Source: an uncultured bacterium
Lineage (GTDB): Bacteria > Myxococcota_A > Polyangia > Polyangiales > Houyiibacteriaceae
Length of the DNA: 38,862 bases
Direction of reading: 5' to 3'
NCBI GenBank assembly: GCA_937984275.1
Contig: CALJYC010000267.1
Span: 1-38,862, forward strand
The position numbers and the translations under genes are program-made. Positions 2,335 to 38,185 of the stretch are shown piece after piece. Numbering within the stretch: the stretch's first letter is position 1; each line of letters starts with the position of its first letter. The notes under the pieces were generated by a model. That model saw only the letters and a program-made list of their open reading frames with translations. It had not been told where the DNA came from and searched no databases.

Positions 2335-5300
2335 AGACGACTTGTCTCCGGCGAACCGCGGGTCGGATCCCCCCTCGTTTGATTTCGATGAGGACGCCAT
2401 CTCCACGCTCCTCGACACTTTCGTCGAGACGCAAACCGGCCCGCAAGCAAAGCGCGTCAGCCGCCCTCCCGACCCCTCGGACTCCGGCGCACAGGCGGCG
2501 CAGCGTACGGTCTTCCAGCACACGTCGCGCCACGAGGCGCTTCCTCTCGTCGGCGACGCCCCCGAAACGAAGGGCCGGCGCGTGGAGCTGCTCGAGGGGC
2601 TGGCGGAACACACCGTGGGTTCGGCGCGAGCACGGCTGCTGACGTCAGCTGCGGAGCTCCACGAGCAACTTGGCAATACCGACGCCGCTGCGGGCAACTA
2701 CGCGCGAGCACTCAACGCAGATGCCCGGGACGTCGTCGTGCTCCGTGCGTTGCGCAGGCACGCCATGCTGCGCGAAGACTGGACGGCCGCCGCGGACGCC
2801 TTGGAGAGGGAGGCTGGGCTCGACCTGAGCGTGGCGGAGCGGGTATCGGCGCTCAAACTGCTCGCGCGGCTTCAGCTCTCGAAGCTCGGTGATCCGGCGG
2901 CGGCCGAACAGGCCGCCGCGCACGCTGCGGAGCTTCGACAAGAGGACTTCGTGGCCTGGGTCCTGACGGCTTCTGCCCGCCTCGCGCGAGGCGACGCAAC
3001 GCGCGCTGCACAGGCTCTCACCACCGCCGCGGAACGCTGGCCGGACGCCAAAGCGCAGGCCGTCATGCTCTTGCACGCAGGCCAGCTCTTGGAGAGCGCG
3101 GGCGCGCTCGAAGCGGCCAAGGGCACATTCGGCCGCGTCCTCGAGCTGCAACCCACCCTGCTCGCAGCACACCTCGGGGTGGTTCGGGCGGCCCGTGGGC
3201 TCGGCGAGACGGAGGCAGCGAAGGAATTGCTGCGCTCGGCGGCGGAGCATGCCTCTGGTCCGGTCGCGGCCGCGCTTCGCCGAACTCTCCTCGACCAAGC
3301 GGACGACATGGCGTCGCTTTGGACTCTGGCCGAGGCTTCGGCGCTTGCCGGTGATGCCCAAAGAGCCATCGAAGCCCTCGGCAGCGCCTCCAACCAAACC
3401 GCCGAAGCCCTTGCGGTGAGCAGCGCGCGGCGAGCACGTCTGCACGCGGAGCTGGGCGGTCACGCGGCCTACGAGCATGCATCACGCGACGCGCAGCAAG
3501 AGCGGAGCCTCGACGCCTACCTCCGGGCCTCAGGGCGCTTGGTCATGGCGGACGTCGAGGACGGAAGCGAGATTCGGCGACTGCTAGAAACGATGTCCGA
3601 CGAGGCAGCAGGCGTTTCGTCGCGCATGGTCCGCGCCGACGATGACGCACTCGGCGGGGACGGTGCGTCGTTCGTAGCCTCGCTCGAGCGTGAGCTCGAG
3701 GACGCGCCGTACGAGCTCGCCGCCGGGGCAGCCCTCGCGATCGCAGAGCTCGCGGTCGGTACCGGTGTGACCGACCGCCGAACGGCGTTGCTTCGCGCAG
3801 AGGAGCGCGTTCCGGGCGACGCGATGATCGGCACGGCCCTGCTTCTCGAGGACGATGATCTCGAGCGCGCCGCCAGGCGATGGACAGACCAAGGCAGGGC
3901 GACGACAGGCTCACGCAGCGCATTTGCCTTCACCATGGCCGCACGCCTCGCGCCGCCAGGCACCGAAGCGGCGATGAGTGCGTGCGAGGACGCGTTGGCG
4001 CAGGAGGCGGACTATTGGCCCGCCCTGTGGGAGCTCGAAGGCACCATCGGCTCGCGAGAAACGCGGGCGCAGAGCGCCGCCGCCCAGGCTGAGCTCGACC
4101 CGGCGGATGCGGTTTCGCACACCCTGCGCGCCTCGATGTGGGCACCGTACGTAGACCAGGGAGGCGAAGACGGAGGGCGATTGGCACATGCCGAAGCCGC
4201 GTTGAATCCGGACGCTCCCGACCCCGTCCTGGTCGAGCACCTTTTCGAAGCCGCCGGCGGCGCCACCGAGGCGGCTGGCGACCTCATGCTGCTGGCTGCG
4301 CAACGGCTGGGCTCGGTCCCGTACCTCGAGCGCGCCGCCGCCTCTTACCGTTCCGCCGGCCTTCCCGCGCGGGCGGCGAAGGTGCTGAGAGAGGCCTCTG
4401 CGGCGCGCCCGGACGACCAAGCGATTCGCGTGCAGCAAAAGGCCGCAGAGCTTCAAGCTTCCGAGTTCGCGCGCTTGGCCGACTCGGCGATGCGCCGCGC
4501 GCGCGAGGCCACCGACGACGCAGAGCGACTCGGCGCGTTTTCTGCGATGGCCGAAGTCGATCGCCTCGCGCGGCGCGACATGCAAAGCGCGCGCTTGTCG
4601 CTGCAATCGATCGCCGAGTTGCGCCCGGAGCACATCCCGACCGCCCGCGCCCTCGAATGGGACGCCCTTCGGGAGGACGACCCCGAGCGCATCCGTTCGA
4701 GCGCCCGCCGGCTCTTGGAAGCTCTTCCTTCCGACTCCACAGACCGACTCGCGAGACATAGGCTCGTGCTCGAGCTGCTCCGAACCGACCCGGACATCAT
4801 GCAGGCCGACATCGACCGGCTCCTGCATGGCATCGACGACGCGCTCGAAGCCGACCCAGCCTTGGCGAGAGAGGTCCTTGGCGCGGCGTACGCAAAGGGC
4901 GACTCCTTGCTCAGTCTGCAGGCGCTCACGGCGCTCCATGCCTCCATCGATGACGAATTGGAGCGGGGCGCGCTCGCTCTCGATACCGCGCAGGTGCTCC
5001 ACCGGTTGGGGGACCCGGAGCGAGCGCTCGAAGTATTGGAGGCGGCCCAGAGCCATCCTCTGGCGCGCGAGGCGGAAGCACGACTCCTTCACGCCGCCAA
5101 GCGGTGGGAGGATGCCGCGAGCGTCTATCAGGATGCTGCCGGCCGGGCCAAGGACACCCATCGCGCCGCATCGTTGTGGCGGGAAGCTGCATGCATCTTC
5201 GAAGAAGAGCTCGATGATCAACGCCGCGCGGTCGACGCCTGGGTCGCCGCTGCGAGTTGCGACCTCACCTACCTCGATGTGTACCGTCGCCTCGCTGCCC

Positions 5301-35520: not shown

Positions 35521-36144
35521 ATGAGCGACGATTTTGCGACGCGCGCAATCACCATCATCGAAGAGACACACCGAGGCGAGCGAGCCTGGGACATCTACAG
35601 CCGGCTGCTCAAGGACCGAATCATCTTCCTAGGCACGCCGATCAACGACTTCGTCGCCAACGCGATCATCGCCCAGCTCCTCTATCTAGAGAGCGAAGAC
35701 GCGGACAAGGAGATCACCCTCTACATCAATAGCCCTGGCGGCATGGTGTCTTCAGGCCTCGCGATTTACGACACCATGAGCTACGTGCGCTGCCCCGTCG
35801 CGACGGTGTGCCTCGGGCAAGCCGCGTCGATGGGCGCGTTCCTGTTGGCGGCCGGCACCGAGGGTCTGCGCCGCGCACTGCCGCACAGCCGCGTCATGAT
35901 TCACCAGCCGCTCGGCGGGTATCAGGGGCAGGCGTCGGACATTGAAATCCACGCCAGAGAGATCCTCAACACCAAGAAGCGGTTGAACGAAATCCTGGCA
36001 CGCCACACCGGTCAGGACGTCGAAAAGGTCCGCCACGACACCGAGCGCGACAAGTTCCTTTCGGCCCTCGAGGCCAAGGAATATGGCATCGTCGACGACG
36101 TGATCATGCCCCGCAAAGAACAGGGCGTCGCCCCAGCGGCATGA
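35521..36144 (+). CDS. clpP: ATP-dependent Clp protease proteolytic subunit
   Basis: [29 protein letters not shown] (Ser), MIHQP (His) and ERD (Asp). Confidence 0.97.
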
Positions 36145-37064
36145 GCACGGTCGAAGTCTGCCTGGTTCGGCACGGTCAGTCGGTGTCGAACGCCCGCGGA
36201 GTCTGGCAGGGTCACGGGGACTCCCCGCTGAGCGACGTCGGACGGACGCAGGTCCATGGGCTCCGCCGCGCACTTGACGGACAACGGTACGACCTCGTCC
36301 TGAGCTCGGATCTGAGCCGGGCTGCGGACACCGCCAAGGCTTCGGGCGTCGAGGTGGAGCACGACCGCGCTTGGCGCGAAATCCACGTGGGCGATTGGGA
36401 GGGGCTCACGATGGAGCAGGTCGTCGAGCGCTTCCCGGAGCAAATCGAGGCTCTCAAAGCCCGGCAGACGTTCGCCATCGGCGGGGGCGAGAGCTGGCCG
36501 GAGGTATTCGAGCGGGCCGACGCGTCGCTGGCTGCCCTTCGGGCGCGGATGCCCCACGGCGGCCGGGCTATCGTCTTCACGCACGGCGGCATCATCGCCG
36601 CCCTCCTCTCGGGGCTCCTCGGGGTCCGCGACCAGTTCCCGTGGCCTCTCGGGCGCATGCGCAATACCGGCCGAACGACGCTTCGCTTCTCGGGAAGCCG
36701 AGTTGAGTTGGTTTCGCACAACGACGACACCCACATCCCGGCCAACCTCCGGCAGAAATACGAACCTCGCCCTGACCAGGTCATCGTCCGAATGACCTCC
36801 ATCGCTGGCGATGGTGAGCCAGCCGATACAGGCACAGCGGATTTCAACTCTGCAATCAAATCTGCACGGAAAACGGGTGCAGGTGGGGCGGTGTCGGTAT
36901 CAGGCACGTCACAACAGATCGCTGACCTTGCCCAGAGGACGGCAGGCGCTTCAGTCAATGAATTCCGGTTTGTGGAGCCAGTGCAGGGTCGCTCGAGCGA
37001 GCTGCTGATCTCGGAGAGCCATCAGATGTTACTCGACTACGGGCTCCCGATGATGCAGATTTGA
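36141..37064 (+). CDS. Histidine phosphatase (phosphoglycerate mutase-like) family protein with a C-terminal extension
   Basis: [28 protein letters not shown] and FTHGG. ATGA overlap with clpP. Confidence 0.88.
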
Positions 37065-37323
37065 AAAATCTGTTGCAGAAATGAAAAGTAAGCAGGCTCA
37101 CGTCTGTACAGCTCGAATACACTTGTAATTCATCTGTAAGGGTTATTCATCACATGTCTCGTTTGTGATCCACCCCACATATGGACCCCCCACTTCGGTC
37201 GATCGGGTGCAATTTAGGGGTTAAACACGCAGAACCTCAAAAATTTTTCAGATCTGAACGATCTCCCATTCCGAGGATCCGGCAACCCCTATGAGATCAT
37301 TCATGATTCCAAGCGCTACAGAG

Positions 37324-37340
37324 TTGGCACGGTCGTAGCA
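37324..37340 (+). promoter_or_regulatory. Sigma54 (-24/-12) promoter
   Basis: TTGGCACGGTCGTAGCA versus consensus TGGCACG-N4-TTGCW, with correct GG-N10-GC spacing. Preceded by a ~260-bp AT-rich non-coding region. Confidence 0.75.
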
Positions 37341-37350
37341 TATAGAAAAC

Positions 37351-37497
37351 TCGACAGAAGCGCTGCGGCGATGACGTACCCCCCACGTCCCCCGTAGCGC
37401 TGTTAGACCGGTGATTTGGCTTGTTTTCCCCCCACTTCATCCAAATCACCATCTCTCTAACGGCCCGAAAGCCCCCCCTTTCGGGCCGTTACTTTTT
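37351..37497 (+). ncRNA. Putative small regulatory RNA with three C-rich-loop hairpins
   Basis: Lies between the sigma54 promoter and an intrinsic terminator, with no credible ORF. Hairpins at 37359-37401, 37410-37450 and 37458-37491 each carry CCCCCC in the loop. Confidence 0.7.
37458..37497 (+). terminator. Rho-independent terminator of the putative sRNA
   Basis: Perfect 14-bp stem TAACGGCCCGAAAG/CTTTCGGGCCGTTA, C6 loop, followed by CTTTTT. Confidence 0.8.
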
Positions 37498-37506
37498 AAT
37501 TCCCCG

Positions 37507-37529
37507 AAAAAGGGGTCAGACCCCTTTTT
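37507..37529. repeat. REP-like palindrome, family B
   Basis: AAAAAGGGGTCAGACCCCTTTTT; a variant GGGGACAGTCCCC lies at 37576-37588. Confidence 0.85.
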
Positions 37530-37599
37530 GAAGGGGTGAGTTTCTAATTTGGTGGTGTTGGTCGGGGATCAGAGAGGGGACAGTCCCCCTTGTCCCTAC

Positions 37600-38091
37600 T
37601 TACTTCACTACCTTCAAGTATGGGGGGCGGTCGCCGGGCTTGGGCGGGGTTGATGGGGGTGAGTCGCCCTCCTCTACTGCAGGCAGAACCCTTAGCGATG
37701 GGCGCTCCTCTACCAGCGGCGGTGGGGGCTCTCTGCCCGCTTCTCGCTCGATTTCCTCGGAAATCTCCTGCGGCATCGAGTCCGGCCAGACCATGCCCCG
37801 GCCGTCGTCACCGGCGAGCGCGAATACCGCGTCCCACTGAATCTGGCAGGTGAAGGGCGAGCGATTGAACGACAGGGTGCCGTAGATGCCGTCCGCATCG
37901 ACCTCTAAATCCCGAATAGGTACGGGCATGTCGAAGCCAATCTGCAACACCAGCTGAGGTTCTGAGCGGTACCACTGCGGGACGACCACCGTGTCCACGC
38001 GCGGGTCGAGATGCACGAACAGGCTGCCCTGGGCCAGGAGGTAGCGGGCAACGTCGAGCTTTGGCGGAAGCGGTTTTTCTTCTTCGGCCAC
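37600..38091 (-). CDS. sspB: ClpXP specificity-enhancing factor / stringent starvation protein B
   Basis: VHLDPRVDTVVVP, TLSFNRSPFTCQIQWDAVFA, a Pro-rich linker and C-terminal ClpX-binding tail PYLKVVK. Confidence 0.85.
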   Translation of the reverse strand: MAEEEKPLPPKLDVARYLLAQGSLFVHLDPRVDTVVVPQWYRSEPQLVLQIGFDMPVPIRDLEVDADGIYGTLSFNRSPFTCQIQWDAVFALAGDDGRGMVWPDSMPQEISEEIEREAGREPPPPLVEERPSLRVLPAVEEGDSPPSTPPKPGDRPPYLKVVK

Positions 38092-38136
38092 CCTTCACCA
38101 TTAGCGGATTCCGCAAGCCTCCGCCACGGACCAACG

Positions 38137-38159
38137 AAAAAGGGGTCTGACCCCTTTTT
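38137..38159. repeat. REP-like palindrome, family B; possible terminator for the DMT gene
   Basis: AAAAAGGGGTCTGACCCCTTTTT. Confidence 0.85.
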
Positions 38160-38185
38160 GAAAGGGTTAATTCGCTCGTAGGTGG

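Follow-up and report, generated by a model that had tools for sequence, protein, structure and literature searches.

A conserved small RNA gene with a sigma54-type promoter and three C-rich hairpin loops in uncultured Polyangiales, a candidate divergent branch of the Pxr family

Pxr, the best-studied small RNA (sRNA) of myxobacteria, gates fruiting-body development in Myxococcus by blocking it during growth, and it is a textbook example of adaptive evolution in a regulator of multicellularity, with direct targets that are largely unknown. The loop of its first stem-loop (SL1) is C-rich and functionally needed, and pairing with G-rich mRNA is suspected. A 38,862-nucleotide contig of an uncultured bacterium labelled Polyangiales (CALJYC010000267.1, the whole of which is referred to here as the window) raises the question of whether hairpins with similar C-rich loops, placed behind a sigma54-type promoter, form a gene in their own right and, if so, whether that gene descends from Pxr. 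A first-pass annotation of the letters had proposed a stand-alone sigma54-dependent sRNA, either a distant relative of Pxr or a convergent new family. We find that a conserved small RNA has a gene of its own in this stretch. Rfam 15 does not recognise the family, and we assign a probability of about 0.6, based on sequence comparison, to the reading that it is a divergent branch of the Pxr family, remodelled and no longer linked to its activator, which is driven by sigma54 and a PxrR-like protein and pairs with G-rich mRNA sites. In the following, G000 denotes the window's own genome (3.49 Mb), other G numbers denote other genomes, and L numbers denote extracted loci.

The near-consensus -24/-12 promoter claimed for the locus is present on the plus strand at 37325–37340 as TGGCACGGTCGTAGCA (TGGCAC-N5-TAGCA), or as TTGGCACGGTCGTAGCA with one base more at the 5' side (37324–37340). 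The spacing of its GG and GC elements is kept in 21 of 21 aligned homologues and also in divergent homologues from G070, G109 and G028, all of which have a TGGCAC-N5-T[ACG]GC promoter. Promoter geometry places the predicted start at 37350 (±3 nt) and the U-tract sets the 3' end at 37497, giving a predicted plus-strand sRNA of approximately 148 nt. The genome contains rpoN, represented by two Sigma54_DBD matches of 223 and 147 bits. These lie at G000:C161:3293-3769 and G000:C117:2-316, the second being cut by the contig start, and may reflect two rpoN genes or a split assembly.

The minimum free energy (MFE) fold of 37345–37497 on the plus strand, computed with ViennaRNA, consists of exactly three hairpins with C6–C7 loops. 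Its energy of -63 kcal/mol compares with -32.5 ± 3.2 kcal/mol in 200 dinucleotide shuffles, none of which was as good (z -9.69); the opposite strand gave a z of -5.4. SL1 (37359–37401) displays the loop ACCCCCC at 37378–37384, holds a second C-run, CCCCC, in its 3' internal loop, and has compensatory changes in 8 of 16 pairs. SL2 (37410–37450), with such changes in 4 of 9 pairs, is closed by the stem GGTGATTTGG / CCAAATCACC, the outer part of which is GGTGA/TCACC, and its large loop contains UUCCCCCCACUUC with a C-run at 37428–37433. The word CCCCCCAC, said to be shared by SL1 and SL2, is indeed found in both, the SL2 copy lying at 37428–37435. SL3 (37458–37497) is an intrinsic terminator with a 14-bp stem (37458–37491; compensatory changes in 4 of 14 pairs), a C7 loop and a terminal CTTTTT, as the first-pass annotation had described it, and it was also returned by a terminator scan. 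The three hairpins were thus confirmed, and the accompanying statement that the stretch is free of open reading frames (ORFs) did not, as mechanical ORFs of 36–51 amino acids overlap it. One-base loop indels between homologues, together with the compensatory stem changes, fit an RNA better than a peptide.

Conservation was checked by blastn, as had been suggested for this locus, and the whole 200 nt including the promoter was recovered in 20 of 24 same-genus genomes at 76–91% identity, with promoter, stems and C loops conserved. A covariance model built from an alignment (A1) of 21 homologous sequences, here called R1, found one copy and no paralogues in G000 and one copy each in 46 of 54 other genomes of the genus. 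Five of the eight negative genomes were examined, and all five also lacked the neighbouring gene sspB; the locus is therefore probably missing from those assemblies, and an empty search result there proves little. An 18-sequence alignment displayed compensatory changes in 17 of 43 base pairs, compared with 2–5 when partners were slid, and 97.8% of its pair cells were paired; none of 500 shuffles reached the observed values. Across the homologues the stems vary, whereas little or no change is seen in the loops, the linkers and the 5' tail GACAUAA; the conserved linkers UGUUAGACC and CAUCUCUCUAA are single-stranded. This is the pattern expected if the single-stranded parts make contacts. With its own promoter and terminator, rpoN in the genome, covarying stems and invariant loops, the element bears out the proposal of an independent sigma54-type sRNA.

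The family extends beyond the genus. Divergent homologues with two or three hairpins occur in three further genera of the order, namely a form with three C7 loops in G070 and two-hairpin forms in G109 and G028. Scanning 185,579 species genomes for the pattern returned 82 stretches. R1 was run on 80 loci and recognised 35 of them as homologues; the accepted records are titled Myxococcota, Myxococcales, Polyangiales, Polyangiaceae, Sandaracinaceae, delta proteobacterium or uncultured bacterium. Among the 45 loci left unrecognised by R1, 18 C-run-pattern loci (Streptomyces and others) were considered as members of the Rfam families 6C or ar7, and they matched neither at gathering thresholds. Matches in G101, G064 and G157 were discarded, since they resemble the family in the terminator only and have neither promoter nor C6 loops. 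In G070, a tandem mini-gene (L070:1285-1368) lies upstream of the three-hairpin RNA. Its single hairpin bears a C7 loop and is accompanied by a T7 tract, and the mini-gene is equipped with a perfect TGGCACG-N4-TTGC promoter and enhancer-like words of its own; it parallels tandem pxr paralogues in the loci L170 and L174.

To compare the locus with Pxr, we needed genuine pxr genes. The Rfam Pxr scan of a phylum sample gave no match in 151 genomes and is uninformative, as the controls were silent too, and the published Pxr probe matched none of 401 genomes at up to three mismatches. Since these genome samples evidently lack pxr, pxr loci were taken from metagenome contigs carrying part of the probe, and Rfam confirmed Pxr on 13 of the 20 contigs scanned (81.6–129 bits). 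The probe itself, complementary to Pxr SL1, places CCCCCCAC in Pxr, as far as the probe description in PMC5568312 goes. The pxr loci have the promoter TGGCAC-N5-CTGCT and a conserved leader ending in AAGCG. Each of the 13 pxr genes carries two to three T[TG]CA-N4-TG[AC]A sites at -212 to -127, some of them literally TTCAGATCTGCA, and tandem sites are spaced by 19–20 nt.

The same motif lies upstream of the sRNA in the window. Approximately 260 nt between the stop codon of the preceding His-phosphatase gene and the promoter are conserved about as well as the sRNA itself. A second RNA in this region was considered and rejected, as no conserved fold was found on either strand (-5.0 and -1.6 kcal/mol); being conserved without a conserved fold, the region is best read as protein-binding DNA. 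It contains three enhancer-like sites, listed without strand. Site 1 (TGCAGATTTGAA, 37054–37065) is conserved in the genus and overlaps the His-phosphatase stop codon. Site 2 (TGCAGAAATGAA, 37074–37085) lies 20 nt from it, a spacing like that of the tandem pxr sites, and has conserved half-sites around a variable N4 spacer. Site 3 is the perfect palindrome TTCAGATCTGAA (37247–37258), approximately 100 nt upstream of the predicted start; it is unique in G000 and nearly invariant in the genus, and similar words occur upstream of the G109, G070 and G028 homologues and of pxr. The motif, which was defined after inspecting both sequence sets, occurs 83 times in G000, and the three sites upstream of the sRNA are the only cluster of at least three in the genome. 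Among 58 sigma54-like promoter matches in G000, only the sRNA promoter has a motif site within 400 nt upstream.

Several further features of this region and of the promoter were recorded. Between the enhancer sites and the promoter lies the element GAGATCATTCATGATTC (37293–37309), which is present in 21 of 21 homologues and unique in G000; G028 holds GAGATCATTGCG at the equivalent position, and the element may bind a DNA-bending protein or some second regulator. At 37186–37197 the 11-mer of the SL2 loop recurs as a further CCCCCCACTTC, in a part that is not conserved in the genus and could be chance or the remnant of a decayed tandem copy. The promoter word TGGCAC-N5-TAGCAT occurs twice in G000, compared with approximately 0.3 occurrences expected from our composition estimate. 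Its second copy, GTTGGCACGGTCGTAGCATA (G000:C253:8735-8757; L002:1501-1523), is followed after approximately 35 nt by a near-perfect sigma70-like TTGACA-N16-TATAGT and then by a small, very acidic ORF, and at least six relatives also have the 23-mer at a second locus. We rejected this 23-mer as a second sRNA locus because the promoter word is all that is present, with no sRNA after it; within the 400 nt upstream there were no enhancer-type sites.

The third component of the pxr system, the activator PxrR, also has a counterpart. PxrR proteins encoded on the pxr contigs identified one G000 gene as clearly best, at 400–431 bits for the four longer queries, compared with at most 343 bits for its paralogues, a ranking made among G000 paralogues. 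The encoded protein has REC, Sigma54_activat and HTH_8 domains, and its C-terminal recognition helix reads TTLWRKMKRL exactly as in PxrR, the only such match in G000 in that search. G028, with its two-hairpin RNA, also encodes the activator. The sRNA promoter may be the only promoter that this PxrR-like activator serves in these Polyangiales. The gene stands tail to tail with that of a second NtrC-type response regulator (L186:5537-6886 and 3774-5171, on G000:C150), and this pairing is kept in G076, G015 and G008.

To evaluate similarity at the RNA level, we used a model built only from the family of the window's sRNA (R2) and a Pxr-derived model (R3). Applied to 82 kb of pxr contigs, R2 returned 16 matches at E <= 10, all of them pxr copies, with scores of 13.8–26.3 bits and a best E of 2e-4; two were tandem pxr paralogues that Rfam had missed. 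On eight control contigs that carry the same 19-mer and no Pxr, R2 gave no match at the 19-mer site. In a phylum-level sample, R2 matched none of 144 genomes outside the genus, although whole-genome scans are underpowered at Pxr-like divergence. When Pxr was threaded onto the R2 structure, 77% of cells were paired, compared with 38–56% when it was slid. Features shared at matching positions are the 5' AAGCG at the foot of SL1, the CCGGTGA that opens SL2 and, at least in part, the SL3 core. The 13 Pxr sequences have the 8-bp core GCGGCCCG/CGGGCCGC, of which the window has seven pairs (CGGCCCG/CGGGCCG) and G109 all eight. By our count, 36–46 nt separate the promoter from the first C-run in both the sRNA family and pxr. 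Taking the regulatory module together with these comparisons, common descent of the window sRNA with Pxr appears more probable than not. The choice that the first-pass annotation had left between a Pxr relative and a convergent family thus tilts to Pxr, on account of the enhancer motif, the PxrR-like activator and the R2 match, which holds in one direction.

The main competitor is an sRNA that is genuinely sigma54-dependent and yet no descendant of Pxr, namely a convergent regulator of the 6C, sX13 or ar7 type under an activator of the same subfamily. A number of results favour it and count against descent from Pxr. At Rfam gathering thresholds, a check that had been proposed for the locus, the whole window had no match. 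At E <= 10, the interval 37050–37650 gave only sub-threshold ar7, 6C and Pxr matches plus two chance ones, with no sX13 match among them (the presence of sX13 in Rfam 15 was not checked). The best of these scores was that of 6C (RF01066), with 32.1 bits over SL2 and SL3 only (threshold 47), followed by ar7 (RF02342) with 28 bits over the full length (threshold 60) in an alignment with many non-standard pairs, while Pxr (RF01812) reached 14.5 bits (E 6.1; threshold 80). Rfam Pxr exceeded its cut-off in none of 41 genomes of the order, and at E <= 1 it returned nothing on the G109, G028 and G070 homologues. R3 found the family weakly and without a significant match (18.2 bits in G109, E 0.028; approximately 12 bits in the genus), and it gave a false positive of 17.7 bits, about equal to the best family score.

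In addition, R1 scored 26.8 bits on L117:6656-6766, in a record labelled uncultured Alphaproteobacteria. That element has two hairpins with a C-loop terminator, and its first core, GACGT-TCCCCCC-ACGTCCCC, is nearly identical to inner SL1; it has no visible -24/-12 promoter and no Rfam family at gathering thresholds. Cross-matches of this size are thus possible between C-loop sRNAs that do not belong to the Pxr lineage, and the R1, Rfam and R3 results together indicate that model cross-matches alone cannot separate descent from convergence. The regulatory module of motif, activator and promoter is the more telling evidence.

The module itself differs from the pxr locus, where pxr lies immediately downstream of pxrR (nla19), with pxrK, in the portions of PMC5684412 and PMC5568312 that describe it. 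The neighbours of the sRNA encode ClpP, His_Phos_1 and SspB, with no activator gene next to it, so that the context is unlike that of pxr, as the first-pass annotation had noted. The activator is conserved in the genus, lies 562–835 kb from the sRNA in three genomes, and has no histidine kinase next to it; the sRNA is thus unlinked from any activator/kinase pair. A clear activator orthologue was not found in G070 or G109, whose assemblies are 66% and 54% complete. The scope of the activator ranking and the definition of the motif after the fact, both given above, call for caution. Co-occurrence is not clean either, as G016 and G073 lack both sRNA and activator, and G002, G018, G083 and G023 have the activator and no sRNA. 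The published view, in the passages of PMC5684412 and PMC11928866 concerned, sets the origin of pxr inside the suborder Cystobacterineae, and we found no paper placing pxr elsewhere in the literature covered, which did not extend to the supplements of the Pxr papers.

Nevertheless, under convergence one phylum would have had to produce together the enhancer motif, an activator whose recognition helix is identical, the class of promoter and its distance to the loop, and further the CCCCCCAC word, the CCGGTGA start of SL2 and the SL3 stem core. Added to this is the R2 result, in which all 16 pxr copies were matched and no false positive appeared at E <= 10. We therefore regard convergence as unlikely, and descent from Pxr as the preferred explanation. 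It is slightly favoured, further, that the PxrR-Pxr module of activator, enhancer sites, sigma54 promoter and C-loop sRNA is older than Cystobacterineae and survives, unlinked and as a triple-C-loop RNA, in small-genome uncultured Polyangiales.

On the preferred reading, the likely activator of the gene would be the PxrR-like NtrC-type response regulator encoded elsewhere in the genome and phosphorylated by some kinase. This protein would bind the three T[TG]CA-N4-TG[AC]A sites in the conserved 260-bp region, sigma54 RNA polymerase would transcribe the sRNA from TGGCAC-N5-TAGCA, and SL3 would terminate it. The product is predicted to display four invariant C-runs, one in each hairpin loop and the fourth in an internal loop. 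These most likely pair in trans with G-rich stretches of several mRNAs, as 6C and sX13 do and as is suspected of the Pxr SL1 loop, and would do so without Hfq; the available text of PMC5684412 knows of no hfq homologue in myxobacteria. The origin is most likely a divergent Pxr branch in which SL2 grew and gained a C-rich loop, SL3 gained one as well, and the linkage to the activator was lost. On balance, the sequence data point to this combination of a divergent Pxr-family sRNA, sigma54 with a PxrR-like activator, and pairing with G-rich mRNA sites. By analogy with Pxr, the RNA probably serves in responding to nutrients or to starvation.

RNA libraries contain matching material. One library contig spans 37353–37499 with one mismatch, and a marine RNA run holds eight short contigs within 37369–37500. 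In run X3 only the sRNA part of a 1.7-kb stretch is covered, although the flanks of relatives are possibly too diverged to map. These libraries were available as contigs rather than reads, which tell nothing of transcript starts and ends, of strand or of level, and RNA libraries may contain DNA, so that the coverage is weak evidence of transcription.

Contacts made by the single-stranded parts could also be contacts with protein, and the sRNA could mainly titrate a poly(C)- or structure-specific RNA-binding protein through its multivalent C-runs. The invariant C-runs on separate hairpins and the conserved single-stranded linkers would suit this role, and the architecture resembles that of multi-site sponge RNAs. 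A quick scan for loop-complementary words in G000 found 10 AGTGGGGGG sites, 8 of them outside the sRNA locus, mostly in coding sequence and with no pattern; the want of an enriched G-rich target word fits titration and lends no support to the pairing step proposed above. No candidate protein is known, however, and the closest characterised C-loop sRNAs, 6C and sX13, act by base pairing according to the relevant parts of PMC6486639 and PMC3771888. We consider titration as the main function very improbable.

The gene neighbourhood bears on whether the RNA is a gene at all. The sRNA sits between two convergent genes, a His_Phos_1 gene at 36141–37064 on the plus strand and a weak SspB match ending at 37600 on the minus strand, with ClpP upstream and an EamA transporter downstream of this group. 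In the genus it adjoins sspB at 44 of 50 loci from 37 genomes, and five of the other six loci end before sspB; sspB also adjoins the sRNA in G070 and G109. The grouping of the sRNA with sspB and clpP is thus a conserved one. The upstream neighbour differs in G109. In G070 the intergenic gap is the same and the sRNA is inverted relative to both flanking genes, which speaks for a transcription unit of its own. Approximately 110 C-terminal residues (196–307) of the His_Phos_1 protein form an extension without a Pfam match, conserved with the gene throughout the genus. A palindromic repeat of the type CCCCGAAAAAGGGGTCAGACCCCTTTTTGAAGGGG stands on both sides of sspB (37500–37545 and 38130–38175) and on dozens of G000 contigs (more than 30 short matches); it gives apparent joints that skip from 37528 to 38137 in RNA-library contigs, and it may be a repetitive extragenic palindromic (REP)-like element or a bidirectional terminator. 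That the hairpins are instead a repeat element, or else a structured 3' region or terminator array in the transcripts of His-phosphatase or sspB, is hardly credible: the position between convergent genes, the multi-copy repeat directly downstream at 37500 and one RNA-library contig of a relative that runs from the sRNA into the sspB region would fit, whereas the element is single-copy, has its own conserved promoter and enhancer region, is flipped against both neighbours in G070, keeps its place beside a different upstream neighbour in G109, and has loops that are better conserved than its stems.

These findings add a conserved sRNA family in a poorly known group of environmental bacteria. If descent from Pxr is correct, a Pxr relative in another class would give Pxr an earlier origin and separate the RNA from fruiting-body control. 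Should the whole module be older than Cystobacterineae, Pxr would have begun as a general nutrient-state riboregulator that was recruited later to gate fruiting-body development. The approximately 50 new sequences would show that the constrained residues are those of loops and linkers rather than stems, and the conserved motif would supply a candidate DNA site for PxrR.

Among known regulators, the Qrr sRNAs of Vibrio have sigma54 promoters under the NtrC-type response regulator LuxO and depend on Hfq. They share with the window sRNA the combination of sigma54 and NtrC-type control, but are unrelated to it in sequence, structure and seed. The ar7 (alpha-r7) RNA of Rhizobiales likewise has three hairpins with C-rich loops; it belongs to another phylum, its stems align poorly, and it has no link to a sigma54 enhancer. 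The C-rich loops of sX13, a gammaproteobacterial RNA, pair with G-rich mRNA sites, and to our knowledge it has no sigma54 promoter. In the sections of PMC3771888 that treat it, sX13 of Xanthomonas is a highly expressed sRNA with C-rich loops that acts by base pairing. The 6C RNA of Actinobacteria resembles the window sRNA in having hairpin loops of at least six C and a terminator hairpin at its end, but has two hairpins rather than three, belongs to another phylum and lacks a sigma54 promoter or enhancer. Within the parts of the sources concerned, 6C is reported to use its C-rich loops for pairing with mRNAs, with no need of a chaperone (PMC6486639), and is expressed in Corynebacterium from a SigA/SigB promoter (PMC5014011). 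Pxr differs from the window sRNA in that SL2 is approximately 30 nt longer here and has a C-rich loop, the SL3 loop is C-rich here too, the neighbours are clpP, the His-phosphatase gene and sspB rather than pxrR and pxrK, and the hosts are small-genome metagenome-assembled genomes labelled Polyangiales, outside Cystobacterineae. In common with it, Pxr belongs to Myxococcota and has a predicted sigma54 promoter and an upstream enhancer region of approximately 260 bp with T[TG]CA-N4-TG[AC]A sites. Both have three hairpins, or two in some paralogues or relatives, and both carry CCCCCCAC in a loop, which in Pxr is that of SL1. GGTGA/TCACC, the outer SL2 stem here, makes up the whole of Pxr SL2, and tandem copies occur in some genomes of both, in G070 for the sRNA described here and in Cystobacter and L170 for pxr.

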